Origin: an archaeon
Lineage (GTDB): Archaea > Iainarchaeota > Iainarchaeia > Iainarchaeales > CSSED10-239
NCBI GenBank assembly: GCA_041657425.1
Contig: JBBABY010000008.1
Span: 17,270-49,269 of the forward strand
Direction of reading: 5' to 3'
Length of the DNA: 32,000 bases
How positions within the stretch are numbered: position 1 is the first letter of the stretch; every line of letters begins with the position of its first letter. The notes beneath the pieces were generated by a model, which did not search any database, was not told where the DNA came from, and saw only the letters and a program-made list of their open reading frames with translations. Made by a program: the position numbers and the translations under genes. Below, one piece after another: positions 7,433 through 32,000 of this stretch.

Positions 7433-7440
7433 CTGTAACC

Positions 7441-9250: not shown

Positions 9251-9265
9251 TTTTAATTAACCAAA

Positions 9266-9282: not shown

Positions 9283-9324
9283 ATATCTTCTTTTAAATCT
9301 TTTTCTTTATAGTTTAATATACTT

Positions 9325-10899: not shown

Positions 10900-10960
10900 A
10901 AAGCTTTAAAAACATTTATTAATTTAAGTTATGTAAAGTAAGGTTAAATAAGGTGGTGTT

Positions 10961-11230: not shown

Positions 11231-11239
11231 AGTGATAAA

Positions 11240-11521: not shown

Positions 11522-11524
11522 ACT

Positions 11525-12193: not shown

Positions 12194-12197
12194 TTAA

Positions 12198-12527: not shown

Positions 12528-12586
12528 GGTATTATTTGTAATAGCAGAAACAGTTTATAAATATTAATTAAAAAGAGGAATAAAAA

Positions 12587-12982
12587 ATGGTTGAATGGAA
12601 AAAAGTATCAAGAAGAAAAGCAACAGGTGGAATTAATAATGCAGTTAATGCAAAAACAAAATCCTTAAGTGAAAAAGGTGGAAAATTCTCAAAAACAACA
12701 GTCGCTAAAGAAGATAAAATATATAAGATAAGAGGCGTTGGCGGAAACGAGAAAGTAAAGATTTCACACGCACAACACGTTTTAATCTCAGAAGGGAATA
12801 AAACAGTTAAAGCAAAGATAATTGATGTTACAGAAAATAAAGCAAATAAACAATTTGTTAGACAAAAAATAATTACAAAAGGCGCAATCCTTAAAGTTGA
12901 TATCAATGGAAAAGAAGCAAAAGCAAAAGTAACATCAAGACCAGGTCAATCAGGACAAGTTACTGGTGTATTTGTTAAATGA
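12587..12982 (+). CDS. rps8e: 30S ribosomal protein eS8
   Basis: 131 aa. The N-terminus 'WKKVSRRKATGG' and the C-terminus 'ITSRPGQSGQVTGVFV' are typical of archaeal S8e. SD 'agagga' is upstream. Confidence 0.85.
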   Translation: MVEWKKVSRRKATGGINNAVNAKTKSLSEKGGKFSKTTVAKEDKIYKIRGVGGNEKVKISHAQHVLISEGNKTVKAKIIDVTENKANKQFVRQKIITKGAILKVDINGKEAKAKVTSRPGQSGQVTGVFVK

Positions 12983-13536
12983 ATTCAAAATCTTTTTTAA
13001 AAAGGTTTAGGAAAGATATAAAGGATAAAAGAGAATATCAAAAAGCTCTTTTATTTCTGTTTTTATTTATTTTTTGTTTTTCAATTTTTTATTTAATTTT
13101 ATCAATTTCTCAGATTTCTAATTATATTAGTTATTTTTACGGATTACTTTCAAGCATTTGTTTGACAGTATTTTTTGGGATAAATAATCAATTTGTTTTC
13201 GATGCCGTTAGTAAGACGTCTTCAATTGTCGTTTCCACAATTTCTGAACCAATAACAATTGGCTTTCTTTGTTCTGGAGTACTGGAATTTTGTTTACTAG
13301 CTTCAGCAATGATTGCGTCTGTTGGTATTTCAATAAAGAAAAGGCTAATGGGCGTATTAATTTCAATTCCTGTAATTGTGATATTTAATGTTTTTAGAAT
13401 TACTGTAACTTCCTACATCATTGTTGCAGGCAATCTTTCTTTTGCCAATCTGGTGCACGGTTTTCTTTTTAGAATATTTCTAATAGCAATGGTTATTGGA
13501 ACCTACTTTGTTTGGTTTAAAGAAGTTTATAAGTGA
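12979..13536 (+). CDS. exosortase/archaeosortase-family transpeptidase (short form)
   Basis: 185 aa and polytopic. It has the family's three catalytic landmarks in the right order and in TM context: 'GFLCSGVLEF' (Cys), 'FNVFRITVT' (N..R) and 'LVHGFLFRI' (His). Its start overlaps the eS8 stop (ATGA). I did not attempt a subtype (ArtA-G). Confidence 0.6.
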   Translation: MNSKSFLKRFRKDIKDKREYQKALLFLFLFIFCFSIFYLILSISQISNYISYFYGLLSSICLTVFFGINNQFVFDAVSKTSSIVVSTISEPITIGFLCSGVLEFCLLASAMIASVGISIKKRLMGVLISIPVIVIFNVFRITVTSYIIVAGNLSFANLVHGFLFRIFLIAMVIGTYFVWFKEVYK

Positions 13537-14692: not shown

Positions 14693-17653
14693 ATGGAAAA
14701 AATTATGAAAAAAGCATATTTATTAAGTGTAATATTTTTAATAGCAATAATTGTACAATCAGTAAGTGCTGTACCGTTCAATATTAACTATTCGTATGTT
14801 AATACTGATTCGCAAAATCAATACTTAAACGTACAATATGGTAATTATTATGATAATGTAAATTTAAGATTAAGATTACAAGCAACAGATGGATACAGTA
14901 ATGTCCCTGTAGTTGTTTCTCCAAAAGTTTATGGAATTTTAGATGGCGGGCAATTAACTTATCTTTATTCTATCCCAACACAGACATATTATGTTTACCC
15001 AACACCACAAGACTATACTTATTCAAATGTTTTCTATTTGAATCCAAGTTATCAAGGTTATGTAGTGAAAGTTTATGCAGAAAGTGCAGGAGTAGTTTAC
15101 AATACCTATTCACAAGCTTATGTTTATCCAGTAAACACAGACCCTTATTTTTATCCAGTAGATGATACAGATAATGAAGAGACAGAAGGTACTACAGACG
15201 CAATAACAGATTGTTCAGATTTTTATCTTTCAGGCGCACATGATATTTATTTTGATGAAGATGAAGAAAGAACTTATAATCTATATATTGAAAATGAAGC
15301 AGGAGACGATCTTGAAGTTTTTGATGTAGATACAAGTAATCCTTCAGAATTAGATATTGATGACATAGAGTATCCTGATACTGTCCCAGAAAGTTCAGTA
15401 AGAACAGTAAGATTAACTCTTCAAGCAGATACTGTTGGAGACGATTATGAATCTACATTTGATGTAACTGTTAGTGCAAAGTACGATAACACTTCTGTTT
15501 GTACAAAGACATATGAAGTTGAATATCATATAAATGATCTAAGTAATGACAACGACAGTAGTTGTTCAGATATTTCTTTTGATGATACTAGTTTTACAAT
15601 CAATGACAATACAGCAACTGTAAAAAACATAGTTATTGAAAATAGTTCAGAAGATTATGATTTTGAAATAGACGATATAACAGTAGAAGATAGAGACGAT
15701 ATCTCTGCAAGGATAGTAGATGAACCAGATGCTGTTGATCAAGAAGATTCTGAAAATATTGAAATAGAGTTTGACCCAGATAATTTAACATACACAGCTA
15801 CAAGATATTTAGATTTAGAAGTTGTTGGTAATCTTGTAAGAGATGGCCACGATGATAAAGAATGTACAAAGAGAGCAAACTTAGCAATTACAATTGTAGA
15901 TAATGGAAATTCTAGTTCAGGAAATACCAATAACAACACAACTCTTTCAAGTTGTAAAAACCTTTCAATTTATGCTGCAAATATTTCTCAAGAAGAAGGA
16001 GAAACAAATAATTATTCAAGAAATAATGGTTTCTTTATAGTCAATAATGCAAATTCAGAGTTTACAATAACAAACTTAACAGTTAATGATAATTCAAGTT
16101 ATGCTAATGTTACAAATACAAATTACAATCCAAGTGTTTATTCAAAGAATTTAAATGCATATTCTTTTGATCTCACAACAAACAATGTAGATATTCAACA
16201 AAACTCAAAAGGAACAGTTTCAGTTTCTGGAAGATTTGCTGATGGTAGAGGGTGTAGTTCGTCAGATATTGGAGTTAAGCAATTTGATATAAGTATTTTT
16301 GAACCAGAGAGTGAATCTTGTGCAGGTATTGAAGTGGAATCAAAGAATGTTCTTTCAGGAAACAATCAAATAAATATTTATAATCACACAAATAAAAAAT
16401 TTTATGTTAGTGATGTTCTTTTCCAAAATAAATATGGTTTAATAGGAAATGTAAACAATAAGCAATTAACTGTTCAAGCAAACAATAGTTCAAGCATGAC
16501 TGTGGGGTTATCAGGAACAGGAAGTCTTGAAATGTTAATTAGCGGTAAGTTTGAAGATGGAAAGAAATGTACTTTCTTACAAACTAATTCTGGTTTTTTA
16601 ACAACAGGGAATACAAATATTCAAGCAAATCTCTCTTCAACTGATTGTGGTTTTGAAGTAATTGCTCCGACAGCAATAACTGTCAATAATAGTCAAGAGA
16701 CAATTACTGCAACTTTTAAAAATCTAACAAGTAAGAATGGGAGAGTTGAAATTACTGGTAATGGCTTAACAACTGATCCAAGTATAATCTTTTTAAGTGG
16801 TTTTGATAATTTTACTCAAAACATAACTCTTTCAAACTTTAGTAATCCAACAAGTGTTTATTATACAGTTAAGTTAAATGATTGTTCAGTAACAAGAACA
16901 TTTACAAATATAGTAAATAATATTTCAGAAACTGAAAGAATTAGTCTTTTAAGTTATCCAACATTAATTAGTCCTACCTCAAGTTATGTTGTTGTTATGG
17001 TAGGCGTTAACAATAGTTTTTCTGTTAACAAAAATGTAACTTTAAAGTTATCTGGTTTTCCAAGTAATTTTCAAACATCTCCAAAGACTACAACTCTTGG
17101 AGCACATGAAACAAAAAATGTGTCTTTAGATTTAATAGTTTCAGAAAATGCAGAAAAGATTGCATACAACGGTTACATTGAGTTATACACTGATAACGCC
17201 CTTTTAAACAAATATCCAATAACAATTAATCTATCTCCTGCAGTTTCTCCAATGACTGCAACAATCAAAACAGAGAAAATAGTAACAGAAGATAGAAGTT
17301 ATAATTTAACTTTAACTTTAAGAAATAATACAAATGTTATTCAAGAAACAGTTGTTGATTTTGGTTTAGATGAAACCTACACAATTGAAGGAGAAAAACA
17401 AGTTAATATTCTCTCTGGCGAAGAAACCGTAAAGAAATATAAGATTGTTTCTTCAGTATTACTAAAAGAAGATAAAGTTATAGATGTAAGAATAAGAGAT
17501 AAAGCAACTGCTCAAGAATTAACAAGTGTAAAAACAACCTTACAATCAGGGGCATCTCCATTAAGTGGTTTTTTGACTCTTGGTAATGCAGGTTTAATTA
17601 TTTTAGGTTTAATTATCCTAGTTGTTTTAGTTATAATATTTAGAAGAAGATAG
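14693..17653 (+). CDS. S-layer-like surface glycoprotein candidate with a PGF-CTERM-like sorting tail
   Basis: 986 aa. The Sec signal peptide is 'MKKAYLLSVIFLIAIIVQSVSA|VPF'. A Tyr-rich N-domain is followed by about five tandem ~110-130-aa Cys-bracketed Ig/CARDB-like domains and two further CARDB-like domains. I hand-counted roughly 30 N-x-S/T sequons. The tripartite C-terminus is described in the next feature. Confidence 0.7.
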   Translation: MEKIMKKAYLLSVIFLIAIIVQSVSAVPFNINYSYVNTDSQNQYLNVQYGNYYDNVNLRLRLQATDGYSNVPVVVSPKVYGILDGGQLTYLYSIPTQTYYVYPTPQDYTYSNVFYLNPSYQGYVVKVYAESAGVVYNTYSQAYVYPVNTDPYFYPVDDTDNEETEGTTDAITDCSDFYLSGAHDIYFDEDEERTYNLYIENEAGDDLEVFDVDTSNPSELDIDDIEYPDTVPESSVRTVRLTLQADTVGDDYESTFDVTVSAKYDNTSVCTKTYEVEYHINDLSNDNDSSCSDISFDDTSFTINDNTATVKNIVIENSSEDYDFEIDDITVEDRDDISARIVDEPDAVDQEDSENIEIEFDPDNLTYTATRYLDLEVVGNLVRDGHDDKECTKRANLAITIVDNGNSSSGNTNNNTTLSSCKNLSIYAANISQEEGETNNYSRNNGFFIVNNANSEFTITNLTVNDNSSYANVTNTNYNPSVYSKNLNAYSFDLTTNNVDIQQNSKGTVSVSGRFADGRGCSSSDIGVKQFDISIFEPESESCAGIEVESKNVLSGNNQINIYNHTNKKFYVSDVLFQNKYGLIGNVNNKQLTVQANNSSSMTVGLSGTGSLEMLISGKFEDGKKCTFLQTNSGFLTTGNTNIQANLSSTDCGFEVIAPTAITVNNSQETITATFKNLTSKNGRVEITGNGLTTDPSIIFLSGFDNFTQNITLSNFSNPTSVYYTVKLNDCSVTRTFTNIVNNISETERISLLSYPTLISPTSSYVVVMVGVNNSFSVNKNVTLKLSGFPSNFQTSPKTTTLGAHETKNVSLDLIVSENAEKIAYNGYIELYTDNALLNKYPITINLSPAVSPMTATIKTEKIVTEDRSYNLTLTLRNNTNVIQETVVDFGLDETYTIEGEKQVNILSGEETVKKYKIVSSVLLKEDKVIDVRIRDKATAQELTSVKTTLQSGASPLSGFLTLGNAGLIILGLIILVVLVIIFRRR
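17537..17650 (+). other. C-terminal tripartite sorting signal (motif + TM helix + basic cluster)
   Basis: 'TLQSGASPLSGF-LTLGNAGLIILGLIILVVLVIIF-RRR'. This has the architecture of PGF-CTERM/PEP-CTERM signals recognised by archaeosortases and exosortases, with SGF in place of PGF. Confidence 0.6.
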
Positions 17654-17677
17654 TTCTTTTCTATTTCTTTCTTTTTT
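17654..17677 (+). terminator. T-rich tract after the S-layer-like gene
   Basis: 'ttcttttctatttctttctttttt' immediately follows the stop. TATA-like 'tatataaaaata' and SD 'ggtga' (17738-17742) follow, ahead of the next gene. Confidence 0.35.
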
Positions 17678-17748
17678 AAAGTCTTCTTAAAATAAGAGTA
17701 TATAAAAATATATTGTCTAAATATATTTCTGTAATTTGGTGAAAATAT

Positions 17749-17838
17749 ATGGATAAGAAAGGACAAGCAGCTTTAGAGGTTCTAATTATTTTTGGAGTTT
17801 TAGTTATTGGTACGATTATTTTTGGAGTATTTTATCTT
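17749..17838 (+). other. class III (type IV pilin-like) signal peptide, protein A
   Basis: A short basic N-region ends in 'KG|Q', with Glu at +5 ('QAALE'), followed by a ~22-residue hydrophobic helix. Confidence 0.6.
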
Positions 17839-20800
17839 AATAGTTTAAATAAAAATGTAAATACTGGATCTAAAGTTTCCGGTGTTCTTGATACTTTTGA
17901 AGATCAACTAGGGTATAAAACTAATGATATATTATTAAGTTGTGGAGATGGAACTTGTGATGATGGAGAAACTAGTTCTAATTGTTGCCAAGATTGTGGG
18001 ATTTGTTCTACAAGTTCTTGTGGAGATAGCACTTGTAATTCTGATGAAAATTGTTTAACTTGTGAGGCCGATTGTGGAACTTGTTCAGTACCTACTTTTT
18101 CAAATTTTGTTTTGCAATTAGTTCAACCTGCAAATTCTCCACTAGGTGTTTCTTTTGGAATAAAAGCAATAGTAGAGCAAACTGATTATAATTCTGCAAT
18201 AATTAATCAGGTTGTAATTAAAAAATATGATGTCAGTGAGGGGCAGTTTGTTTCGAATTTTAGTTGTTCTTTTAATGGTGAACAAAACAGTATATTTACA
18301 TATTTAGATCAGTTATATTTAAACGGAAGCAATCAATTAGAAAACGCAATATATTTCTCTTGTCCAGAAGCAGGAGAATATCAATTTGAATTTTATGTTA
18401 AGCCAATTGATTCAGAAGAAAACGTAATAGATTCAGGCGAATTATATAAATCTATAACAAAAACAATTGAAGAAAATAATTTAGCATTTATTTCAACATG
18501 GGATACAAGTAAACCAAGTTATTCAACTAATAAAACAAATAATAATCAAATAATGTTGCCATTAGTAAATTCTGGAACCTATAATTTTACAGTTAATTGG
18601 GGAGATGGAACAACTTCTCAAATTACTTCTTGGGATCAAACAGAAAAAACACACACATATGCAAATCCAGGAATATACACATTAACAATAATAGGAGATA
18701 TTTGGGGATTTGGTTTTTTTAATGATTGGAGTTCTTTTGGAGATGCCAATAAATTAATAGAGATATCTCAATGGGGTTCATTAAGGTTAGGTGATATAGG
18801 AGGACTACATTTTTATAATGCAGGAAATTTAATTATAACTGCACAAGATGTTTTAGATGTAAGCGAAATTACTAATATGAGATCTATGTTTGCAAATTGT
18901 GTATCTTTGACTACTGTTCCAAGAATGAATGAATGGGATGTTTCTAATGTTATTAATATGACGGGTGTATTTGGTAATACTCTTTTTAATGAATATATTG
19001 GGGACTGGGACACATCAAATGTAAATAATATGCAAGGCATGTTTTCTTATGCACGAAATTTTAATCAACCGCTTAATAATTGGAATGTTTCTAAAGTAAA
19101 AAATATGCAAAATATGTTTTCAGGTGCAGGGTTTTTTAATCAGCCAATTGGTAGTTGGAATGTTTCAGATGTAAATAATATGCAAGGCATGTTTTCTTAT
19201 GCACGAGATTTTAATCAGCCGATCGGCAGTTGGGATGTTTCTAATGTAAGGACTATGGAAGACATGTTTCATTCAGCAGATAAGTTTAATCAGCCAATCG
19301 GCAGTTGGGATGTTTCTAATGTAAGGACTATGGAAGGCATGTTTCATTCAGCAGATAAGTTTAATCAGCCAATCGGCAGTTGGGATGTTTCTAATGTAAG
19401 GACTATGGAAGCAATGTTTATGTCATTATATATTATTAATGATTTTAATCAACCGATAGGCAACTGGAATGTATCTAATGTAACAGATATGCATCAAATG
19501 TTTTTAGGCGCAGACTATTTTAATCAACCGATAGGCAACTGGAATGTATCTAATGTTACAAATATGACTGAAATGTTTTCAGAAGCAACGAGTTTTAATC
19601 AACCAATCGGTAGTTGGAATACCTCTAAAGTTACAAATATGTATAAGATGTTTGCTGGTGCAATTTCTTTTAATCAGCCAATCGGCAGTTGGGATGTTTC
19701 GAAAGTCACCAATATGTCCCATATGTTTAATGCTGATGGTTTTTTAAATCACGAAAAATCTTATTTTAATCAGCCAATTGGCAGTTGGAATACATCTAAA
19801 GTAACAGACATGTCTTATATGTTTTCTGAGGCAAAAGATTTTAATCAGCCAATCGGCAGTTGGGACGTTTCTAAGGTTACAAATATGGAAGCAATGTTTT
19901 CTAATGCAAGGTCTTTTGATCAGAATATAAGTGATTGGAATGTTTCAAATGTTACTAATATGGGTAATATGTTTTCGGATGCAAATTCTTTTAATCATCC
20001 AATTGGTAATTGGGATGTTTCAAATGTTACTAATATGGCAGGGATGTTTTCTATAGATTGTTACCAAGATAATCCATCAGAATCTAATTTTAATCAACCA
20101 ATTGATGATTGGGATGTTTCTAATGTTACAGATATGAGTGGGATGTTTTGTAATGCAAAATTTAATCAAACTTTAAATTGGAATACATCAGAGGTAACAA
20201 ATATGAATAAGATGTTTGCATTTCATAAAAATTTTAATCAACCTTTAGATTTTAATACATCTAATGTTACAGATATGAGTTATATGTTTTATAATTCAGA
20301 AAATTTTAATCAGAACTTAGGGAATTGGAATACTTCTAATGTTACAGATATGTCGGGTATGTTTTGGAATGCAAAAGATTTTAATGGACAGATAGGAGAT
20401 TGGAATGTTTCAAATGTAAATAATATGTTTAGAATGTTTGGTGGTGCAACCAGTTTTAATCAAGACATAGGAGATTGGAATACTTCAAATGTAATATATA
20501 TGGGTGGGGCTGTGGATTTAGGTTTGGCAGAAGACGGAATGTTCTATAATGCAACAAACTTCAATCAAGACATAGGTGATTGGAACACATCTAATGTTAT
20601 TGGAATGGGGGGTATGTTTTGGAATGCAGAAAATTTTAATCAAGACATAAATGATTGGGATGTTTCTAATGTAACAGATATGTCTAGAATGTTTTCAGGA
20701 GCTAACGACTTTAATAAAGATATAAGTGGATGGAATGTTTCTAATGTTACAGATATGCACGAAATGTTTAGTGGTGCAACAAGTTTTAATCAAAATATTA

Positions 20801-20892
20801 GTTTTTGGAATGTAAATAAAGTAGATAATTGGGCGGCAATATTTTATAATTGTCCGATAGTAAATTTAAATAAACCATTGAAATTCAGATAA
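17749..20892 (+). CDS. giant pilin-leader surface protein A: class III signal peptide + 2 Cys-rich modules + Cys-pair Ig-like domain + BspA/DUF285 leucine-rich repeat array
   Basis: 1047 aa. The N-terminus is '[30 protein letters not shown]'. Residues 65-112 are '[22 protein letters not shown]' plus '[22 protein letters not shown]'. The preface 'FISTWDT...[13 protein letters not shown]...[15 protein letters not shown]' is typical of BspA/DUF285 proteins. About 24-27 repeats of ~25 aa follow, with consensus '[23 protein letters not shown]'. Confidence 0.8.
19210..19415 (+). repeat. three near-identical in-frame 75-bp tandem units within the DUF285 array
   Basis: Units start at 19210, 19285 and 19360 ('tttaatcagcc[g/a]atcggcagttgggatgtttctaatgtaaggactatggaag..atgtttcattcagcagataag'). 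They differ at only a few bases (gac/ggc/gca at one codon). More near-identical pairs lie at 19021-19070 vs 19171-19220 (48/50 identical) and around 19443 vs 19518. Confidence 0.85.
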
Positions 20893-20925
20893 GCTTTTAA
20901 TTTAAAAAAATAAAAATAAAATAGC

Positions 20926-21195
20926 ATGAACTCAAAAGCACAAATGGAAGTAATAATTTTAATTGGAGTATTTATAGCAGTAATTAGCTACGGCATTTAT
21001 TCTGTTGTTCAAATAAATGATCAACAGGGTGTCGATGCTAATCAACTGGACGCAAATCAAAATAATAATTCTCTTAATCAAATTATTTCTCCAAATAATA
21101 ATACATTATTAACTCCAAATAATAATTCAAATAATCAAGCATCAACACCAACTGGACAAAGTAATGGTTCTAGTTCTTCTTCGCAAGGATCAAAT
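20926..21195 (+). repeat. 5' cassette copy 1 (leader + spacer) shared with the next gene
   Basis: By eye, roughly 90% nucleotide identity with 23731-24000 over about 270 nt. The two sequences are unrelated beyond that point. Confidence 0.8.
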
Positions 21196-23697
21196 CCTGA
21201 AGCTGAAGAAGATAATTCTCCTGGCCACGATTCTTCTAATTCAGATAATGATTTAGCAGATCTTCCAAATGAACTTCCAGAAGGGAATAGTGATTCAATA
21301 GTTTGTGGTAATGGGTTTTGTGAAACAGGAGAATCTTGTTCAAGTTGTCCTAGCGATTGTGGAGCGTGTGTAACTAGTTGTACTGAGTCTCAATTAGGAG
21401 GAATTACTTTTACGCCTAATGGAGGAATTGTCGCTTCTGGAACAACAGTTGCTTTAAGTTATTCTGGGGCTTGTTCAAATTATAATATTTATTACACAAT
21501 AGATAATACAACGCCTACTGCAACCACAGTTTCAAGTTTATATAGCCCATCAACTCCAATAATAATTACTCAAAATAAAAATATAACTGCAAGAGTTTCT
21601 ACTCTTGATAGTTCTGGAAATAGAATATATGGAGTAGTTAGTAAACAAGAATATAAGATAAACACAACTATCGTACCACCTGAAATAAATTCACTTGCGG
21701 AGTTTACAAAATTCACAGAAATTTCTGGTAATTCAAATTTTGGAGAAGCAGTAGATATTGTTTCAAAGCCAACAGATTATTCTGCAGGCATTAAAGAATT
21801 TGTAGTATTATATTTCACACATAGAGGTAGTACCAGTGGACCATTTAGATTAGTTTCTTTTAAGTATAATCTTTATTCTCAAACATTAATAGATAAAAAA
21901 ATTGTAACTTTAAATAATTTAGGAAGTTTATCTGGTTACGCAGATAAGAGTTTGTATTATTTATCCGCAGATAAATATATAGTTGTTGGAACAAATAAAA
22001 TCATTAAAATAGATTTTAGTAAAGCAAATCCAGACGTTCCAGTTTGGGAATATAATTTTGCAACAATCATTGGAGAAGATCCTGTTTTTTATAACGGATT
22101 TGCAGGAATTACTACAAATCTAGATGTAGAAGGAAATTTTATATTTACAGGAAGATTATACCCAATAACTCCTGAAGTATTTTTAATAAAAATGAATGTT
22201 AATTCAGATACTGCTCCAACAGATATTTGGAGTTCTACAAATCCTACAAGTTGTGGCAATCCAAGTCCAGGTTATACTCATAGTTGCTATTCTACATTTG
22301 TAAAATCGCAGTTTGTAGTAAGTAATAATAATTTGATTTATTATTATTTAAATAGTAATGGATTAAGAATTATGAGTTTAAATAAATTAACCGGAGAGAT
22401 TATTTGGGATGTTAATAAATCTTACAATGCATCTAGTTTAAATAATTCACTAACTTTACTTGATAATGGAGATTTATTTTTAATTGATATAAATCAAAAT
22501 AAATATGTTTATTCAAAGTTAAGTAAAACAGACGGAAGCACCATTTGGCAAAATAGTGTGTTATTATCTTCAACTAATCCAGTAATGCCAATTTTAAAAA
22601 CTAGTGGAGATAATATGTTTTTATTTGATGGTTATAGTAGTTCAGATTATAGAGCAATAAAGAAATATTATAATATAAATTTAAATAATGGTACCGCCAA
22701 TGAAGTGGCATTTCCTGATGGTTTAACCATATTTACAGGAAATAGTCCTTATTCCAGAACAAAGCCAATTATTGAATTTAATCCAAATACAAATGATGTA
22801 TTGTTATTACACCAAGGATCACATCTTTCTCTTTATATTGATATTTACCGCCCCTTTACAAATATAATAAAAATAGATAAATCAGGAATTCCATATATGT
22901 TAGCTTGGGCGCAAAATGGCACTAAATATTTTACTCAATTTGGAAATTTATCTTATTTTAGAGAATCATTAATTTCTAATAATGCTCTTTATATCGCAGG
23001 TTATTCTTTTCCATATGAGAATGCAAATACAAATATATTTTTATCAAAGCAAAATTTGGTAGATTCTAAAACTCCAGTAGTTGATTATTATAAAACCATA
23101 AATTTAGCAAGTTTAAATTATTCATTAAATAAAGATTTATATTGGACAGGAGAAGAATCTTCTGCATATCCTGTTCCAAATATGCATTTTGAGTTATTAA
23201 ATGATGGATATGGAATATTGTTTGTTCCAAATCTTATGAATAAAGATACAAATGCAGAAACTGCTTTACTTACAGTAATAAATTTAAATAATGAGGATAA
23301 TAAAAATCAATTTACATTAACAGCTCCAGAAACAATAACTCCGGTTCCATGCACAGATGCTCCAGAATGGGCTAATTATTATTGTATAACTGCAAATTTA
23401 AAGTTATCAGAATCTGCAAATATTGGCATGTTTGTTTCTGATAAAAATTTATCTGTTTTAACAAGTGGAAATTTTATACGCATAAGTGAAAATAGTTCTC
23501 CATCTGATGTTGCTAGACAATGGAATTTAAATGAGATTACTTCTGGAGATTCTATTCAAAAGATAAGAACGAACTACACTGGTGCATATTATCTAAATAT
23601 TTCTTCCTATTCTTCAGCAGATAGCGGAGTAGATTATTATAATCCAAAGATTGGAAAAAGACAATTACATAGAATTTATGTTAATGCAGTTAATTAA
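20926..23697 (+). CDS. giant pilin-leader surface protein B: class III-like signal + N/Q/S-rich spacer + Cys-rich module + chitobiase-C-like domain + ~670-aa uncharacterised (beta-propeller-like?) region
   Basis: 923 aa. The N-terminus is 'MNSKAQMEVIILIGVFIAVISYGIYSV', followed by a low-complexity Asn/Gln/Ser spacer. 'CGNGFCETGESCSSCPSDCGAC' spans residues 127-148. 'ITFTPNGG...NIYYTIDNTTPT...ITARV' is CHB_HEX_C-like. The remainder has recurring '..IW..N'-type strands but no motif I can name. Confidence 0.6.
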   Translation: MNSKAQMEVIILIGVFIAVISYGIYSVVQINDQQGVDANQLDANQNNNSLNQIISPNNNTLLTPNNNSNNQASTPTGQSNGSSSSSQGSNPEAEEDNSPGHDSSNSDNDLADLPNELPEGNSDSIVCGNGFCETGESCSSCPSDCGACVTSCTESQLGGITFTPNGGIVASGTTVALSYSGACSNYNIYYTIDNTTPTATTVSSLYSPSTPIIITQNKNITARVSTLDSSGNRIYGVVSKQEYKINTTIVPPEINSLAEFTKFTEISGNSNFGEAVDIVSKPTDYSAGIKEFVVLYFTHRGSTSGPFRLVSFKYNLYSQTLIDKKIVTLNNLGSLSGYADKSLYYLSADKYIVVGTNKIIKIDFSKANPDVPVWEYNFATIIGEDPVFYNGFAGITTNLDVEGNFIFTGRLYPITPEVFLIKMNVNSDTAPTDIWSSTNPTSCGNPSPGYTHSCYSTFVKSQFVVSNNNLIYYYLNSNGLRIMSLNKLTGEIIWDVNKSYNASSLNNSLTLLDNGDLFLIDINQNKYVYSKLSKTDGSTIWQNSVLLSSTNPVMPILKTSGDNMFLFDGYSSSDYRAIKKYYNINLNNGTANEVAFPDGLTIFTGNSPYSRTKPIIEFNPNTNDVLLLHQGSHLSLYIDIYRPFTNIIKIDKSGIPYMLAWAQNGTKYFTQFGNLSYFRESLISNNALYIAGYSFPYENANTNIFLSKQNLVDSKTPVVDYYKTINLASLNYSLNKDLYWTGEESSAYPVPNMHFELLNDGYGILFVPNLMNKDTNAETALLTVINLNNEDNKNQFTLTAPETITPVPCTDAPEWANYYCITANLKLSESANIGMFVSDKNLSVLTSGNFIRISENSSPSDVARQWNLNEITSGDSIQKIRTNYTGAYYLNISSYSSADSGVDYYNPKIGKRQLHRIYVNAVN

Positions 23698-23730
23698 TCG
23701 TAATAAAAATAATTAAAAAAGAGAAAAAAT

Positions 23731-24000
23731 ATGAATTCAAAAGCACAAATGGAAGTAATAATTTTAATTGTAGTATTTATAGCAGTAATTAGCTATGGTA
23801 TTTATTCTGTTGTTCAAATAAATGATCAACAGGGTGCTGATACTAATCAACTGGACGTAAATCAAAATAATAATTCGTTAACTCAAATTATTTCCCCAAA
23901 TAATAACACATTATTAAATCAAAATAATAATTCAAATAATCAAGCACCAATACCAACAGGACAAAGTAACGGTTCTAATTCTTCTTCACAAGGATCAAAT
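23731..24000 (+). repeat. 5' cassette copy 2 (leader + spacer)
   Basis: Direct repeat of 20926-21195, 2805 bp downstream, at the same position relative to the start codon. Confidence 0.8.
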
Positions 24001-26472: not shown

Positions 26473-26563
26473 TAAATTAAAATATAAAAGAGAAGAAATT
26501 TAATTAATAGTAATATTTATTAATTAATTATAGACGTATATTAATAGCACTATAAAAATTAAG

Positions 26564-29500
26564 ATGAGATTTATGAAAACAAAAGGGCAAGTTTCTATAG
26601 AGTTATTAATTATTTTAGGAATAGTAGTAATTGGGGCAGTTTTGTTTGGAGTATATTATTTAAATAATATACGCAGTAACATTAAATTGTCAGATGACTC
26701 TTATAATTATGATAATCAATTTACTCCTGGAATTGTAATTCCTACTTGTTATGATGGAATTCAAAATGGAAATGAATCTGGAATAGATTGCGGAGATATT
26801 TGTCTAGTTTGTTCATCAACAGATTGTGCAAATACAGTAACCATTTTTTCCCCAATAGGAGGTACCTATTTTTCTCCACAATCTATTCGTTTAAGTTATA
26901 ATACAATAAATTGTCCTGGTGCACACATTTATTATACCACTGATGGAACAACTCCAACTTCTAATTTACAACCATATAACGCACCAATAATTTTAAATGT
27001 TGGACAAACAACAATCAAAGCAAAAGTTATTGCAATAGACGGTGCAGGAACAGAAATTTCAGGAATTCCTAATGAGCAAACTTATAATGTAATTACACCT
27101 TCTCTAGGTTGTGATAATCCAATTGGGACTGTTACATTTTCTCCAGCAGGTGGGACTTATTCAACTACACAATATGTTACATTAAATTATAATGATCCAA
27201 ATTGTTCTGATTATAAAATATATTATACAATAGATGGTAATGAACCAACTAAAACTTCTAATTTATATTTCTCTGATTCTTTATATTCTTCAATAAGAGT
27301 TTTAGAAACAACAACAATAAAAGCAAAAGTTTTTGCAAAAAATTCATCTGGGCAAGATGTAAATGGCGATACCAATACTCAAATTTATAATATTTCTGTT
27401 TTAAAGATGCCAATTGCAACTCCAAATTCTGGTATTTATCCTGCAACTCAAACAATTGTATTATCTTTAGATTCATTAACGCCTTTAGGAGCAATAATTA
27501 GATATACAACTGATGGTTCAAAAGTAAATGATTTATCATCACAATATGTTTTACCAATTCCTATTTCTGATAGACTTGTAATAAATGCAAAAACCTATAA
27601 ATCAGGAATGGATCCAAGTGCACAAGCATCATTTAATTATTTAATAACTCCAGAGGATCCAATTACTTTTAGTAATCTTAAAATAGATTATATGACTCCA
27701 TATTCTGAGATTGATAATCCGTTTACTGTTTCTGTTATTGCAAAAACAGAAGTTCCATTTGTAAATATTAATAGTGTAGAAATTAAAAAAAATGGATGGG
27801 TTACAAATTCTTGTTCTTTTTTAGGAATTAATAATGGCAGAACTCAAATTCCAATAGAGTGTACTGGTGGACATTGTACTGATTTAGGAGATTTATCAGA
27901 AACGTATAGTGGAGAAGAATACTTTAATAATTTTTTATTCAGTTGTAGCGAATCCGGAAATTATAGTTTTAAATTTACAGGCACATTAACTCAAGCAGGT
28001 TCAACTATTACACACGATACTAATTTAGGATATATTGAGATTAAACCAGTAATCTATTATTTATCGCCTCCTAAAGCAACTCCAATTTCTGGATTCTATC
28101 CTTTAGGAACAATTATTTCATTGTATTTAGATCCGCCAATACCAGATGCAATAATTAGATATACAACTAATGGTTCAGAAGTTACTGAGACTTCTCCTGC
28201 ATACAATAGGCAAATCACTCTTAATCAAGAAACAGTATTAAAAGCAAGAGCATATAAAGTTGGGACCACTCCAAGCTCACAAGCAGTATATAATTATTTT
28301 ATTTCAGAATCTATGACCCCAAGATTTGGGAATTTAGAAATTACAAATTTAGCTTCGCAAGCAACAATTAGTTTTCCATTTAATGTAGAAGTTACTGCAC
28401 AAGCAAATCTTCCTATTGTTTATTTAGATCAAGTAGAAATCAAGAAAAATGGAAATTTAACAAACGCTTGTCAGTTTTTAGGAATCACTAATGAACCAGA
28501 AGAATATAGAGTTTGTTCTAACGGTATTTGTGAAGATTTAGGATATTTAACAATAACTGGAGGATTTGAAGAATATTATAACACTTTTAAATTTAAATGC
28601 GATGAAACAGGAACATATACTTTTAGATTTAGAGGAGAATTAGGAACAACAATCAAAATTACTCCTCCAGAAAATATTACAATTCCAGAACCTCCAGAAT
28701 ATGATTGTTCTTTAAACCCAGTAATTCCTGGACAGATTTGGTGTTTAGAAGATTTAGATGCTATACGCAATAATCTTTTAGGTACATATATTTTAATGAG
28801 AGATTTAGATTTTGAAAACAATGCACACTATCGTAATCCTACTCTGAATAAACCATTATGGACAACCGGAGAAGGCTGGGTTCCATTAGGTACAATTTTA
28901 GGAACTAGATTTAGTGGAGTTTTCGAAGGAAATAATAAAAAAATAAGCCATTTATATATTAATCGTCCAAACTTTGATTTTTATAATAGAAATCAAGGAT
29001 TATTTGGGAATATCCAACCAAGTTTCCAAAATCCTATTGTTCAAATTAGGAATCTAGGATTAGAAGATGTTAATATTACGGGTGCCGATTATATTGGAGC
29101 TTTAGCAGGAGATGTTATTGATAAATTACAGTATCTTAATAATTCTAATGTAATAATTAATAATTGTTATTCTTCTGGCGTGGTTAAAAATTCTAATAGT
29201 TCAGCTGGCGGAATTGGAGGGTTAATTGGTAGACATTTGGCATTAGGACCTATGGAGAATTGTCATTCATCAGTAGATGTTAATTCTATTGGCGATGTTT
29301 ATTCAGGTGGACTTATAGGTGTTATTCCATCAGATATTTGGGTTACAAATTATGACACAATTATTGATCATTGTTATTCTACGGGGAATGTATTTGGAGA
29401 AGAATTGATTGGTGGGTTAATTGGTCATTTAGGATATAATTCAATTGTAAGGAAATCATATTCAACAGGAAATCTTTCTGGAAATATGATTATTGGTGGA

Positions 29501-30019
29501 TTAGTTGCAGGATTAAATGATGGAATTATTGAAGAAAGTTATTCTACCAGTAATATAATTGCAACATCACCATTTTCTGGTTCCACTTATAATGTAGGAG
29601 GACTAGTGTCTGCTGCATCTGGGCATTCTGTTATATCAAATAGTTATTCAACAGGAGATTTAATTATAGCTAACCCTCATACATCTAATTCAATTGGAGG
29701 ATTTATAGGGAGTTCTGCTTCTGGTTGGGTAAATATAGAAAATAGTTATTCAACGGGGTCTATAACCTATTTGAATTTACCAAGTCCTACGAATAAAGGA
29801 TTTTCAGGACATGATTTCACAGGTAGTTTAAATTTTTGGGATACTCAAACATCTGGACAATCCACAAGCCCAGGAAGTCCTAGTGTAGCAATTATTGGAA
29901 AGACAACATCAGAAATGAAAACACCATCAACTTTTAGTGATTGGAATTCTTCTGTGTGGGCAATTAATTCTGGTATAAATAATGGGTATCCTTATTTACA
30001 AAATAATCTACCACAATAA
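26564..30019 (+). CDS. giant pilin-leader surface protein D: class III signal peptide + Cys-rich module + 4 chitobiase-C-like domains + 2 Cys-pair Ig-like domains + GLUG beta-helix
   Basis: 1151 aa. 'M(RFM)KTKGQVSIELLIILGIVVIGAVLFGVYYL' is a textbook Class_IIIsignal/DUF361-type N-terminus, and an alternative start at ATG 26573 gives 'MKTKGQ'. 'CYDGIQNGNESGIDCGDICLVC' spans residues 62-83. Repeated '..IYYTTDGTTPT..'/'IRYTTDGS' domains follow. The GLUG region runs from 'YILMRDLDF' to 'NGYPYLQNNLPQ'. Confidence 0.7.
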   Translation: MRFMKTKGQVSIELLIILGIVVIGAVLFGVYYLNNIRSNIKLSDDSYNYDNQFTPGIVIPTCYDGIQNGNESGIDCGDICLVCSSTDCANTVTIFSPIGGTYFSPQSIRLSYNTINCPGAHIYYTTDGTTPTSNLQPYNAPIILNVGQTTIKAKVIAIDGAGTEISGIPNEQTYNVITPSLGCDNPIGTVTFSPAGGTYSTTQYVTLNYNDPNCSDYKIYYTIDGNEPTKTSNLYFSDSLYSSIRVLETTTIKAKVFAKNSSGQDVNGDTNTQIYNISVLKMPIATPNSGIYPATQTIVLSLDSLTPLGAIIRYTTDGSKVNDLSSQYVLPIPISDRLVINAKTYKSGMDPSAQASFNYLITPEDPITFSNLKIDYMTPYSEIDNPFTVSVIAKTEVPFVNINSVEIKKNGWVTNSCSFLGINNGRTQIPIECTGGHCTDLGDLSETYSGEEYFNNFLFSCSESGNYSFKFTGTLTQAGSTITHDTNLGYIEIKPVIYYLSPPKATPISGFYPLGTIISLYLDPPIPDAIIRYTTNGSEVTETSPAYNRQITLNQETVLKARAYKVGTTPSSQAVYNYFISESMTPRFGNLEITNLASQATISFPFNVEVTAQANLPIVYLDQVEIKKNGNLTNACQFLGITNEPEEYRVCSNGICEDLGYLTITGGFEEYYNTFKFKCDETGTYTFRFRGELGTTIKITPPENITIPEPPEYDCSLNPVIPGQIWCLEDLDAIRNNLLGTYILMRDLDFENNAHYRNPTLNKPLWTTGEGWVPLGTILGTRFSGVFEGNNKKISHLYINRPNFDFYNRNQGLFGNIQPSFQNPIVQIRNLGLEDVNITGADYIGALAGDVIDKLQYLNNSNVIINNCYSSGVVKNSNSSAGGIGGLIGRHLALGPMENCHSSVDVNSIGDVYSGGLIGVIPSDIWVTNYDTIIDHCYSTGNVFGEELIGGLIGHLGYNSIVRKSYSTGNLSGNMIIGGLVAGLNDGIIEESYSTSNIIATSPFSGSTYNVGGLVSAASGHSVISNSYSTGDLIIANPHTSNSIGGFIGSSASGWVNIENSYSTGSITYLNLPSPTNKGFSGHDFTGSLNFWDTQTSGQSTSPGSPSVAIIGKTTSEMKTPSTFSDWNSSVWAINSGINNGYPYLQNNLPQ

Positions 30020-30089
30020 ATAATTATTAAAATAATAAGTTACAGGTAATTAGTTAACATTTAAAAACATAATTATTTATAATATATAT

Positions 30090-32000
30090 ATGAATCCAAA
30101 AATAATTATTGTTTTATTCTTAATACTGCTTTTTTCAAATGTATTTGCAGATTTTAATTTCTCTAAAGATAATTCATTAAATCTTCTTGAAAATAAAGAT
30201 AATTTAGAAGTATCAAATCAAAATAATTATCAAGATGTTTTTTATCCCCCAGAAGAAGTATTACTAAAGGAAATGGGAATAACCACTGAACAATATAAAG
30301 AACTGCTTGTAAAAAACGCACCAGTTACAAGAAATTCAAGTGTTTCTAACATCTGGGGAACAACGCCATTATCCGGGACAATACACATTCCAGTTCTTCT
30401 AGTTCAATTCACAGACAAGATGCCAACTCAAACACAAAGTGCAATAAATGAAGCATTTAATAGTTCTAATTATTTAAGTGGCAGTGGAATAAGTGTAAGT
30501 AAATACTATACAAAGCAATCCTATGGAGATTTAAATATTATTTTTGATGTTTACAATTGGACAACTATGCCAAACACGTTTTCTTATTATTCTCAAAATA
30601 GTAATAGTAATTTTTATCTAATAATTGATGCAATGAATACTTTCAATCCAAGTGTAAACTTTGCACAATATGATAATGATAATGATGGTAGACTTGATGG
30701 AATAGTTATTGTTTATCCTGACCAAGGAAAAATTAGTCCAAATGGTATTTGGGCGCAAACAAGAATATTAAAACAATATAATAATAATCCAGTTGATGGA
30801 AAATATCTAGGAAACGCGGCGTTAATTCCATCATTAGGTGCTAGAAGTATTACTCCAAGTCAATTTGAAATACCTGTAACTACTCATGAATTTGCACACG
30901 TTTTAGGAATACCAGATTTGTATGCAAATGGTTCAAGTGGTCAATTAAATGCAGGGCCAGTTTATCAAATGACAATGATGATATTTCAAGAATATACAAG
31001 TCCAACAAATCATTGTCTTAATAAGCCAATCAATCTTGATGTTTGGTCAAGATATTTTTTCGGTTGGGTTAATCCAATTGAATTAACAATAGACAGCAAT
31101 AAAGAAATAAGTCTAAGAAGTATAAACGATTATCCAGACGCAGTTATTTTAAGAAATAGCAATATGGGTCCAAGGGAATTTTTCATAATAGAGAATAGAT
31201 ACAGAAACACAGCAGACCCTAATAACTTAGATAATTGTATGTTTCTAAATGGTTCCACAATAAGAGGCGGTTTTGCAATTTATCATGTTGATGAAAACAA
31301 AATTGAATTTGACTATCCAAACAATTGGGTAAATTGGGATAGAGATAATAATTATTTTGATTATACAACTTGGCCAGGAATAATCTACAGAGAAAATATG
31401 ATTGATTCTACTTATCCAACAAATTTATCAATATATTCTAATGATTTATATTTTAACGTAGTATCAAATGGTTGTGATTCATTTAGATATTTTGATAGTA
31501 ATAAACGAATCTGTGCAACATATTATTATGCAGTTGATGATTCAACAACACGAAGTTATAATGGAACATTAGATCCATTAATTAAATTTGAAGCAATCTC
31601 TACAGCTAATTTACCAATAATGACTGCTAAGATGCTTGTTGGAGAAGAAACAATAATTCCTGCAGCAACACCTATTGAAGGAACATATACTTCTGCACAA
31701 TCAATAGTTTTAAGTTCGTTAACTCCTGGCGCAACAATTTATTATACCACTAATGGAACTACACCCACAACCTCTTCTACAATTTATGTTGGACCGATTA
31801 CTGCACCATTAGGAGCAGTAACAACAATAAAAGCAATTGCTAAAAAAAATAATTTTTATGTTAGTGATGTAATGACAAGTGTTTACACAATTTATGGGGC
31901 AGTAGCAACCCCAACATCAAGCCAACCATCAGGCAATGTTGCTTACAATTCTCAAGTGATCTTAAGCACAACCACAACTGGCGCGACAATTAGGTATACT
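30090..32000 (+). CDS. secreted M6-family (immune inhibitor A-like) zinc metalloprotease with C-terminal chitobiase-C-like domains; 3' end outside the window
   Basis: This gene is not in the ORF track. Hand translation from ATG 30090 gives 637 codons with no stop, in frame to base 32000. The signal peptide is 'MNPKIIIVLFLILLFSNVFA|DF'. 'IPVLLVQFTD', 'DNDNDGRLDGIVIVY' and the zinc site 'THEFAHVLGIPDLY' (HEFAH at 30885-30899) match the M6 domain. From about 31654 come 'GTYTSAQSIVLSS..ATIYYTTNGTTPT' and a second 'ATIRYT' domain. Confidence 0.75.
   Translation, partial: MNPKIIIVLFLILLFSNVFADFNFSKDNSLNLLENKDNLEVSNQNNYQDVFYPPEEVLLKEMGITTEQYKELLVKNAPVTRNSSVSNIWGTTPLSGTIHIPVLLVQFTDKMPTQTQSAINEAFNSSNYLSGSGISVSKYYTKQSYGDLNIIFDVYNWTTMPNTFSYYSQNSNSNFYLIIDAMNTFNPSVNFAQYDNDNDGRLDGIVIVYPDQGKISPNGIWAQTRILKQYNNNPVDGKYLGNAALIPSLGARSITPSQFEIPVTTHEFAHVLGIPDLYANGSSGQLNAGPVYQMTMMIFQEYTSPTNHCLNKPINLDVWSRYFFGWVNPIELTIDSNKEISLRSINDYPDAVILRNSNMGPREFFIIENRYRNTADPNNLDNCMFLNGSTIRGGFAIYHVDENKIEFDYPNNWVNWDRDNNYFDYTTWPGIIYRENMIDSTYPTNLSIYSNDLYFNVVSNGCDSFRYFDSNKRICATYYYAVDDSTTRSYNGTLDPLIKFEAISTANLPIMTAKMLVGEETIIPAATPIEGTYTSAQSIVLSSLTPGATIYYTTNGTTPTTSSTIYVGPITAPLGAVTTIKAIAKKNNFYVSDVMTSVYTIYGAVATPTSSQPSGNVAYNSQVILSTTTTGATIRYT

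Follow-up and report, generated by a model that had tools for sequence, protein, structure and literature searches.

We describe a candidate cell-envelope locus of an archaeon of the Iainarchaeota, contained in a 32-kb stretch of DNA (the window) that corresponds to positions 17,270 to 49,269 of contig JBBABY010000008.1 (assembly GCA_041657425.1) and whose 3' end is the end of the 49,269-bp contig. The reading that we favor, with a probability of about 0.6, is that a conserved core, comprised of a surface layer (S-layer) protein and an archaeosortase, is joined to an expandable array of adhesins on a pilin-type scaffold and a protease. ORF calling placed six consecutive open reading frames (ORFs) on the + strand, designated P1 to P6, at positions 14693-32000. 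The genes are as follows.

12979-13536, + strand: exosortase/archaeosortase-family membrane protein, 185 amino acids (aa), above the TIGR04178 cut-off, 1.1 kb upstream of P1
14693-17653, + strand: P1, 986 aa, probable S-layer or major envelope glycoprotein
17749-20892, + strand: P2, 1047 aa; pilin-type N terminus, two Cys-rich knots, a lineage-specific module of ~115 aa, a PKD-like module and an array of ~20 PARCEL/DUF285 repeats of 25 aa
20926-23697, + strand: P3, 923 aa; pilin-type N terminus, N/Q/S-rich linker, Cys-rich knot, one CHB_HEX_C_1 immunoglobulin-like (Ig) module (PF13290, 28 bits) and an orphan head of ~670 aa
23731-26472, + strand: P4, 913 aa; pilin-type N terminus, acidic/N-rich linker, lineage-specific module and a GLUG beta-helix head with a conserved C-terminal cap
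26564-30019, + strand: P5, 1151 aa; pilin-type N terminus, Cys-rich segment, three CHB_HEX_C_1 modules, lineage-specific module, fourth CHB_HEX_C_1 module, second lineage-specific module and a GLUG beta-helix head
30090 (ATG)-32000, + strand: P6, 637 codons, open at the contig end; predicted secreted M6 (InhA-like) zinc metalloprotease with CHB_HEX_C_1 modules on its C-terminal side

A preliminary description of this DNA had reported an uninterrupted island of six giant same-strand genes separated by 33-95 nt. Coordinates, strand, and lengths were reproduced, and the gaps are, in order, 95, 33, 33, 91, and 70 nt. The span from P1 to P6 is 98% coding and contains no further ORF of at least 100 aa on either strand. 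That description had overlooked the archaeosortase, the sorting-type signal at the C terminus of P1, and the class III signals discussed below; judged from the sequence, the functional unit begins near position 12979 rather than 14693.

The six frames are genes with predicted extracellular products

For frames of about 1000 codons in DNA of 29% GC, a chance origin is excluded. Contigs of several assemblies break in or just after the region, as is typical of repeats, and on that ground the long frames might be taken for an assembly chimera or for decaying pseudogenes. We regard this as extremely improbable. The DNA of P1 to P6 was recovered at 99.9-100% identity from four other public sources (loci L001-L003, L005, and L006), each covering parts of it, and this agreement among five independent contigs over the covered parts indicates that the genes are real and not an assembly artifact. 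In addition, all six frames stay open for 637-1151 codons at 29% GC, and every protein has a proper signal sequence together with orthologues or paralogues. The sole structural difference between assemblies is a 57-nt in-frame indel in the Cys-rich region of P2 (at ~18035-18096), which gives a protein of 1066 aa in GCA_041678985.1 compared with 1047 aa here; the sequences suggest that the copy number of the Cys-rich knot varies within the population. The NCBI entry identical to P6 has 637 aa, lies on a 49,269-bp contig, and is flagged "partial." Because the sixth gene is cut by the contig end, the size of 17 kb originally given for the island holds as a lower bound, with the 3' border of the island undefined.

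The composition of the six proteins sets them apart from the products of 20 genes upstream: Asn accounts for 11.3% of residues (5.7% upstream), Ser plus Thr for 19% (12.2%), and Lys plus Arg for 5.2% (15.1%), and there are 2.3 N-glycosylation sequons per 100 aa, compared with 0.66. On the basis of this composition, the Sec-type N termini of P1 and P6, and the class III-type N termini of P2 to P5, the products of P1 to P6 are predicted to be extracellular.

The upstream genes of the window are archaeal housekeeping genes, encoding a MinD-like ATPase, LSm, enolase, ribosomal proteins L1, L10/P0, and the P1 stalk protein, Hef helicase, XPF nuclease, and S8e; an NYN-domain protein also is encoded there. 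Homologues of our P1 and of the archaeosortase were found only in metagenome-assembled genomes (MAGs) titled "archaeon," "Candidatus Diapherotrites archaeon," or "Candidatus ainarchaeum sp." or, for P1, in metagenomes. The contigs of the relatives measure 0.4-1.0 Mb and have 24-32% GC. By these sequence criteria the lineage is Iainarchaeota (Diapherotrites), a phylum of the DPANN archaea, in agreement with the earlier assignment to an AT-rich archaeal genome.

P1 is a probable S-layer protein encoded beside an archaeosortase

P1 gave no Pfam, NCBIfam, or PDB sequence matches, and a P1 profile likewise found nothing meaningful in the PDB. Its 27 homologues (33-63% identity) all come from archaeal MAGs or metagenomes. 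An AlphaFold2 (AF2) model of P1, built with 25 homologues in the alignment, is all-beta with a mean predicted local distance difference test score (pLDDT) of 79; in it, about eight beta-sandwich domains stand between a signal helix at the N terminus and a transmembrane (TM) helix at the C terminus. Foldseek searches with the model returned only generic multi-Ig proteins of the hydin and alpha2-macroglobulin type, which are not diagnostic for an S-layer. P1 carries 30 N-x-S/T sequons. The protein thus combines the features of archaeal S-layer proteins (secretion signal, membrane anchor, repeated beta-sandwich domains, and many sequons), and its gene is conserved in position beside ribosomal operons. 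The model and these features make P1 a probable S-layer or major envelope glycoprotein. NCBI starts the protein at M5, which gives 982 aa. Two terminal features were recognized:

14693-14770, + strand: P1 Sec-type signal peptide, aa 1-26, ...SVSA|VPF, read from the sequence and a helix in the model, with an inferred cleavage site
17561-17650, + strand: P1 C-terminal tripartite signal (LSGFL motif, TM helix, RRR), from the alignment of homologues

The C terminus of P1 reads LSGFLTLGNAGLIILGLIILVVLVIIFRRR (also given as ...SPLSGFLTLGNAGLIILGLIILVVLVIIFRRR). A motif of the form [LIM][ST][GA]F[FL] precedes the TM helix in 24 of the 27 P1 homologues, down to 34% identity, and one more has LTALF. 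It stands exactly 30 aa from the C terminus in 16 homologues, the P1 of the window included, and is found also in the more distant loci L018, L021, and L022, with the variant ITGLF in L019. The motif is kept while the surrounding sequence diverges to ~30% identity. Its core is Ser/Thr-Gly/Ala-Phe, with no Pro-Gly-Phe.

The candidate enzyme for this signal is encoded just upstream. The archaeosortase-family protein scored 36.1 bits against TIGR04178 (cut-off, 23) and fell below the cut-off of every named subfamily model (ArtA-E, XrtH, XrtM, and pacearchaeosortase); the best scores were 23.6 versus 125 for XrtM, 17.7 versus 86 for XrtH, and 17.2 versus 80 for pacearchaeosortase. The 58 proteins of its family range from 99 to 206 aa (mostly 173-195 aa) and come exclusively from Iainarchaeota-type MAGs, and homologues carry the source name "exosortase/archaeosortase family protein." C98, N137, R140, and H160 are invariant across 10 orthologues, down to 41% identity. 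Cys, Arg, and His are the proposed catalytic residues of the family, and C98, R140, and H160 presumably correspond to those of ArtA. From these sequence features, we propose that the archaeosortase is the processing and anchoring enzyme of P1.

In a more distant locus, L023 (positions 388-10252; GCA_030634785.1), the gene of an archaeosortase homologue (34% identity) closely precedes that of a 2796-aa protein containing CarboxypepD_reg/SpaA-like Ig domains. Short archaeosortases may be paired with giant surface proteins outside the P1 family as well.

Two further genes lie between the archaeosortase gene and P1:

13533-14114, + strand: basic protein, 193 aa, no family match, syntenic in most relatives at 30-53% identity
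14121-14507, - strand: coiled-coil protein, 128 aa, divergent from P1, 59-82% identical in every syntenic locus

The 193-aa protein has the conserved N terminus NPITPLPEKN..IFT..IPT.RK.Q and might be functionally part of the envelope locus. The coiled-coil protein, whose length of 128 aa matches the calls in other assemblies, has only a weak match to ASRP (archaeal SMC-related) proteins and belongs to no family; it is more conserved than the archaeosortase or P1. On the 3' side of P1, T-rich tracts and a TATA-like box suggest that P1 is a transcription unit separate from the array.

P2 to P5 begin with predicted class III (prepilin-type) signals

The four proteins that follow P1 all start with the architecture of a class III (prepilin-type) signal, in which K[G/A] is followed by Gln and a hydrophobic helix. 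In each case there is a short basic stretch, Lys-Gly or Lys-Ala, Gln at +1, an early Glu, and about 20 hydrophobic residues. The N terminus of P3 is MNSKA|QMEVIILIGVFIAVISYGIY, that of P4 differs from it by one residue, and that of P5 is MRFMKTKG|QVSIELLIILGIVVIGAVLFGVYYL. Public gene calls start P5 at Met4, giving 1148 aa, and are found on short contigs only, which yield no further sequence on the 3' side. For P2, the signal is placed as follows.

17749-17838, + strand: P2 class III signal peptide and hydrophobic helix, cleavage after MDKKG|, from the motif scan and the N-terminal part of TIGR04205 (E = 3.5e-5)

The same signal-peptide part of TIGR04205 matched P5 (E = 2.4e-6) and gave no match to P3.

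The 266 ORFs of at least 100 aa in the collected archaeal loci were scanned for M-x(1-9)-[KR]-[GA]-Q-x(1-3)-E followed by ~20 hydrophobic residues. This revealed 17 ORFs, namely, P2 to P5 and 13 in relatives. Sixteen of these share the strand of a P1 orthologue and follow it on its 3' side as an unbroken series; the remaining one adjoins an M6 protease gene in a more distant archaeon. On these sequence counts, the link between a class III N terminus and a position 3' of P1 is not due to chance. Class III signal peptides are known to occur on large adhesin-like and substrate-binding proteins, and a type IV filament/pilus "system 1" has been reported in DPANN archaea (bioRxiv 10.64898/2026.04.22.720090).

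Stalk and head modules are shared and shuffled between neighbors

Behind the signals, P2 to P5 are modular. Domain searches with Pfam and NCBIfam models bore out the DUF285, GLUG, CHB_HEX_C, and M6 modules named in the preliminary description, and these scans found no catalytic or solute-binding domain in P2 to P5. P2 scored 758 bits against PF03382 (DUF285; cut-off, 25) and 354.7 bits in 19 stretches against TIGR02167 (PARCEL; cut-off, 30), and its repeat array is encoded by 75-nt tandem DNA repeats. A PDB sequence search with P2 found no match. P4 scored 128.1 bits in six stretches against PF07581 (GLUG; cut-off, 20.5), and P5 scored 50.3 bits against the same model and 173 bits in four stretches against PF13290 (CHB_HEX_C_1/Fn3_assoc). 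In a PDB sequence search, P5 was weakly similar to the putative IgA1 protease 3n6z (E = 0.0098).

The head of P3 (aa 240-923, 21643-23694) has only three relatives among 1.84 billion representative proteins. An AF2 model from a three-sequence alignment reached a pLDDT of 53; all of its Foldseek matches were beta-propellers, and the model resembles a BamB/PQQ-type beta-propeller. P3 also gave a weak BamB match. We tentatively assign it, from the model, as a beta-propeller. One of the relatives is fused to RCC1-like repeats, as judged by eye.

The stalk parts recur in different combinations. A lineage-specific module of ~115 aa with two cysteines is common to P2, P4, and P5 (twice in P5), and Cys-rich knots are clear in P2 and P3, with a looser Cys-rich segment in P5. 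P2 and P5 are 33% identical over the N-terminal 94 aa of P2, and P4 and P5 are 34% identical over ~550 aa, including the GLUG head. P5 and P6 share a CHB_HEX_C module with 58% protein identity and 82% DNA identity over a short stretch. P3 and P4 start with a direct repeat, found by repeat search:

20912-21206, + strand: 295-nt repeat copy 1, 5' leader and first ~94 codons of P3
23717-24011, + strand: 295-nt repeat copy 2, 5' leader and first ~94 codons of P4

The two copies are 89% identical in DNA, and the first 56 aa of the proteins are 91% identical; the remainders of P3 and P4 are unrelated. The 5' ends and modules shared by P3/P4, P4/P5, P2/P5, and P5/P6 point to tandem duplication and to module exchange between neighbors.

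P6 is a predicted secreted M6 protease

P6 scored 123.8 bits against TIGR03296 (cut-off, 110.8) and 24.1 bits against PF05547 (cut-off, 22), has a Sec-type N terminus, and gave no match in a PDB sequence search against solved structures. Its full-length relatives have ~650-1100 aa. Inspection of the sequence revealed the following motif.

30885-30917, + strand: zinc motif HEFAHVLGIPD (HExxHxxGxxD), aa 266-276, intact

We predict that P6 is a secreted M6 protease. P6 relatives at 52-68% identity belong to archaeal MAGs. A clade at 35-41% identity also is archaeal, since one of its loci, L025, has EF-1alpha, S10, and PolD nearby. Bacterial-type M6 proteins, with tails of the type IX secretion system, are at most 30% identical to P6. 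From these comparisons, the M6 protease is one that diversified within archaea.

Three M6 proteins of 53-60% identity labeled "Bacteroidales" or "Cloacimonetes" sit on contigs of 2.6-2.9 kb. We considered and rejected the "Bacteroidales" entry (L024; GCA_041673305.1, JBAYXZ010000266.1) as a bacterial homologue: it is 60% identical to P6 and lies on a 2.9-kb contig with a GC content of 0.33 and a third-codon-position GC content (GC3) of 0.18. By its sequence, it is probably a DPANN contig that was misbinned into a bacterial MAG.

At L025 (positions 8001-12684), in a more distant archaeon, the gene of a 699-aa M6 protease directly precedes one for an 814-aa protein that combines a class III signal with Flg_new_2 and CHB_HEX_C modules. 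A protease and a pilin-type adhesin are thus paired outside the P1 locus as well.

An intact M6 zinc site, together with one or two M6 genes per relative locus, also would suit a different function for the array, namely, the scavenging of nutrients by the secretome of a cell that is free-living or loosely associated, in which the M6 enzyme digests external protein and the class III-signal proteins act like the bindosome of Sulfolobus. Class III signal peptides are known on substrate-binding proteins (bioRxiv 10.64898/2026.04.22.720090), CHB_HEX_C modules occur on glycoside hydrolases, and the GLUG region is weakly similar to the N-terminal region of IgA1 proteases. However, P2 to P5 are without a catalytic or solute-binding domain, ABC transporter genes are absent nearby, and solenoids and beta-helices on long stalks, in hypervariable copy number, are more typical of adhesins. 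We consider scavenging unlikely and an array of adhesins probably the better account of P2 to P5. The heads may be directed at host cells, other surfaces, or nutrients, and the episymbiotic attachment toolkit of the preliminary description is one possible use of the array.

The core is conserved and the array is variable among relatives

The gene order S8e-archaeosortase-(193-aa gene)-coiled-coil gene (- strand)-P1 was found in 14 of 14 distinct relative loci for which upstream DNA was available, including L021 and L022, where P1 identity is 33-34%. The same order is present in L002, which is the strain of the window itself, and in L008, a second assembly of the L007 locus.

What follows P1 differs from locus to locus. 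The window has four pilin-type genes and then an M6 gene; L007 has four pilin-type genes (584, 521, 518, and 449 aa) and then two M6 genes. In L014 there are two pilin-type genes, with an M6 gene further on past housekeeping genes, and in L017 one Sec-type and one pilin-type gene precede rpl3. L016, L018, L019, L021, and L022 have no pilin-type genes, and rpl3-rpl4-rpl23-rpl2 lies directly 3' of P1. From this comparison, the core is the archaeosortase and P1 between ribosomal-protein genes, and the pilin-type/protease array is an expandable insertion before the rpl3 operon in one sub-lineage. The preliminary description had left it to comparison with relatives whether the island is syntenic, scattered, or hypervariable: the position is conserved and the genes are clustered, and the content is hypervariable, with 0-4 pilin-type genes.

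In L007 (positions 8356-9852), the interval between the coiled-coil gene and P1 holds an additional gene, for a 498-aa protein of the right-handed beta-helix type (Beta_helix/NosD) that has a Sec signal and, at its C terminus, a TM helix. This insertion suggests that the upstream side of P1 also is able to take up surface genes.

The array is native in composition

DUF285/PARCEL, GLUG, M6, and CHB_HEX_C_1 are mostly bacterial families. In keeping with this, the preliminary description had raised the possibility of inter-domain acquisition, and one could read the island as a recently acquired, largely bacterial-derived block that gives an episymbiont its host-attachment toolkit. The PARCEL family, moreover, is patchy and transfer-prone and was absent from the archaeal genomes available in 2010 (PMC2996958). 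We found no archaeal relatives of the P2 PARCEL array in the loci and collections searched, and there is no P2 orthologue in the relatives' islands. A metagenome scan with P2 gave repeat-level matches only, at no more than 53% identity, on proteins with other N termini; none was an orthologue, none had a class III N terminus, and the best was a lipobox lipoprotein.

Against a recent block transfer, the island could not be separated from 20 upstream housekeeping genes by composition or codon usage. GC3 was 0.140 in the island and 0.168 in the upstream genes, and the distance in relative synonymous codon usage was 0.379, compared with a permutation null of 0.318 +/- 0.050 (P = 0.12). The window contains no mobility genes (integrase or transposase), tRNA target, or flanking direct repeats, with the 3' flank lying past the contig end; tRNA and Rfam scans of the window were without a match. 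Similar arrays occupy the equal chromosomal position in relatives, the M6 relatives at 35-68% identity stand in archaeal contexts while bacterial-type members reach at most 30%, the "Bacteroidales" match is probably misbinned, and the N-terminal signal and stalk parts are lineage specific. These data do not support acquisition of the island as a recent event, and we rate the bacterial-block explanation as improbable.

Within the island, the PARCEL array of P2 alone looks possibly foreign by sequence. The first ~235 residues of P2 have homology to P5 and to proteins of relatives and are, on this comparison, native. P2 thus has the appearance of a possibly foreign head attached to a native part for delivery and stalk. 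The capture of the PARCEL head, as we infer it, would be too old to have left a codon-usage trace.

Genes upstream of the locus

An NYN-domain protein is encoded at 90-548. Two small proteins without a family match (560-1060 and 1068-1514) precede the MinD/ParA-type ATPase (1546-2370). Hef is split into separate helicase (9325-10899) and XPF nuclease (11525-12193) genes, with two small ORFs (10961-11230 and 11240-11521) between them. A similar-sized pair is present in L002, of the same strain, and in L004; in L007, the helicase and XPF genes abut with no ORFs between. A guess that the two small ORFs form a toxin-antitoxin pair was dropped, there being no Pfam match in its support.

Discussion

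Starting from the genes, domains, N- and C-terminal signals, synteny, array variability, and native codon usage, we can outline how processing, anchoring, display, and adhesion might proceed at this locus. P1 would be exported by the Sec pathway, N-glycosylated, and held by its C-terminal TM helix. The archaeosortase would recognize [LIM][ST][GA]F[FL], cleave off the helix, and probably transfer P1 to a membrane lipid, in the manner of ArtA and the Haloferax S-layer glycoprotein (PMC6098224). Mature P1 would form the main coat of the surface, a sheet of beta-sandwiches. P2 to P5 would be made as prepilin-like precursors and cut after K-G/A, leaving Gln at +1, by a class III signal peptidase encoded elsewhere. 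The retained helix might either insert into a type IV pilus-like fiber, as that of a minor or tip subunit, or anchor the protein in the membrane. The Cys-rich knots, CHB_HEX_C Ig-like modules, and lineage-specific modules would act as a stalk that raises a variable head beyond the coat, the head being a PARCEL solenoid in P2, an orphan probable beta-propeller in P3, and a GLUG beta-helix in P4 and P5. P6 would be secreted by the Sec pathway and degrade external proteins. Tandem duplication, swapping of 5' ends and Ig modules among adjacent genes, and the occasional capture of a foreign head would make the array grow and change.

A bolder version of this scheme, which we put forward tentatively as somewhat less than an even chance, is that the locus contains an undescribed archaeosortase subfamily (~184 aa, restricted to Iainarchaeota, with one neighboring S-layer substrate and an (S/T)(G/A)F-CTERM signal) beside a recombination hot spot that joins native prepilin N termini and stalks to interchangeable heads, some of them bacterial. 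If so, P2 would be the first PARCEL protein on an archaeal pilin scaffold, and the DPANN cell would have a built-in system for varying what it sticks to.

Several observations weigh against our reading of the core and of the array. P1 has no homology to any characterized S-layer family in Pfam, NCBIfam, or PDB sequence searches; the S-layer-like sheet protein of the preliminary description is plausible through the beta-sandwich model, the 30 sequons, and the conserved position beside ribosomal operons. A preprint lists a 1039-aa Iainarchaeota S-layer protein, A0A2G9N319, whose length fits that of the distant P1 homologues. When the final 50 aa of P1 were scanned with curated CTERM models (E <= 10), no PGF-CTERM match was found, and no match of any kind had E <= 0.1. 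The best scores (10.5 versus 24 for Heimdall-CTERM and 10.6 versus 15.9 for LPXTG) came from weak matches that cover only the TM helix and basic tail. A single candidate substrate, P1, was seen, within a single contig. Distant P1 homologues have a cytoplasmic tail of 30-60 aa after the TM helix, which is unusual for sortase-type signals. For the array, P5 and one relative scored 20.7 and 20.5 bits against PF04021, both below the gathering threshold of 23.7, the 32-kb window has no prepilin peptidase, pilus ATPase, or platform genes, and P2 to P5, at 900-1150 aa, are very large for filament subunits. Finally, gene order is collinear throughout the lineage over the entire stretch from enolase to rpl3, and in so frozen a neighborhood it counts for less that the archaeosortase and P1 are adjacent.

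The collinearity, the cytoplasmic tails, and the lack of a matching CTERM model would fit a simpler arrangement, in which P1 stays anchored by its TM helix as a type I membrane protein of the surface, the archaeosortase acts on other substrates or on none, and the two are adjacent through frozen gene order. We hold this to be less likely than processing, at roughly a one-in-three chance or slightly below. The short motif before the TM helix is kept while its flanks diverge to ~30% identity, the catalytic-type residues of the enzyme are invariant, and in L023 an archaeosortase homologue again lies just upstream of a giant surface-type protein. ArtA, furthermore, can process signals that are away from the extreme C terminus (PMC6098224).

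Each component of the locus is of a known kind: archaeosortase/CTERM substrate, class III-signal proteins, PARCEL, GLUG, M6, and DPANN surface expansions. ArtA, at ~300 aa, is far longer than the Iainarchaeota enzyme. The closest parallel to P1 is the ArtA/PGF-CTERM S-layer glycoprotein of Haloferax volcanii (PMC6098224), which shares Sec export, heavy N-glycosylation sequons, beta-sandwich domains, and a motif-TM-basic tail. The enzymes share membership of the exosortase/archaeosortase family and conserved Cys, Arg, and His, and the motifs a Gly/Ala-Phe core. In contrast to ArtA, the Iainarchaeota enzyme is short and outside the named subfamilies, its motif is [LIM][ST][GA]F[FL] and not PGF, and its single candidate substrate is encoded next to it. 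The lineages also differ (DPANN versus Euryarchaeota), and some P1 homologues have a cytoplasmic tail.

The N termini of P2 to P5 presumably resemble those of the Epd-type pili and EppA-processed pilins (PF04021/DUF361) of Methanococcus maripaludis and are like those of the Sulfolobus bindosome in having a basic N terminus, K-G/A, Gln at +1, Glu at about +5, and ~20 hydrophobic residues. Large non-pilin cargo on class III signals, as in P2 to P5, is already known. Unlike in those systems, the cargo here consists of stacked adhesin modules, 900-1150 aa in length, and the genes adjoin an S-layer-like gene and no pilus assembly genes. P2 also resembles the PARCEL/DUF285 surface lipoproteins of Mycoplasma, Listeria, and others (NF045896, the Mbov_0838 family; PMC2996958), which have ~20 tandem 25-residue repeats encoded by 75-nt DNA repeats in a surface protein of a very small genome; P2 scored 498.5 bits against the Mbov_0838 family model (cut-off, 500). 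However, P2 has an archaeal prepilin-type N terminus instead of a lipobox, as well as additional Cys-rich, lineage-specific, and PKD-like modules.

P6 shares the M6 catalytic domain, the HExxHxxGxxD motif, and a Sec signal peptide with the InhA/M6 metalloproteases of Bacillus and Vibrio but is at most ~30% identical to the bacterial-type members found, is followed by CHB_HEX_C_1 Ig modules, and belongs to a clade diversified in archaea. P4 and P5 share GLUG beta-helix-type repeats, an N-terminal lead-in, and a C-terminal cap with the GLUG/M26_N region of streptococcal IgA1/Zmp proteases and with bacterial GLUG adhesins (weak matches to PF05342, NF046017, and 3n6z), whereas the M26 catalytic domain is absent and the repeats are fused to a pilin-type N terminus. 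The diversification of surface proteins in Nanoarchaeota (PMC6142677) is similar in that a small-genome archaeon has a large, fast-evolving surface set thought to mediate contact with its partner. The protein families differ, and here there is one array at a fixed chromosomal site beside an S-layer-like gene.

DPANN archaea are thought to make their living through contact with other cells, and large clusters of surface proteins are to be expected in their genomes. The locus contradicts no current understanding. Three points are distinct: a short, unclassified archaeosortase with a non-PGF motif and a single neighboring candidate substrate in a DPANN phylum; pilin-signal adhesins arranged as a variable array at a fixed site beside an S-layer-like gene and not beside pilus genes; and bacterial-type heads, PARCEL included, on archaeal prepilin N termini. 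The locus also advises caution, in that the presence of "bacterial" Pfam families is by itself no sign of recent gene transfer.

With a probable S-layer protein and the enzyme likely to anchor it, archaeosortase-type anchoring would reach beyond the Euryarchaeota and use a new motif. Bacterial-type surface modules appear here deployed behind an archaeal prepilin signal, and pilin-signal adhesins that vary in number and heads between close relatives form the pattern expected for partner or substrate specificity. The locus provides concrete candidates for the biology of the DPANN envelope and of DPANN adhesion.

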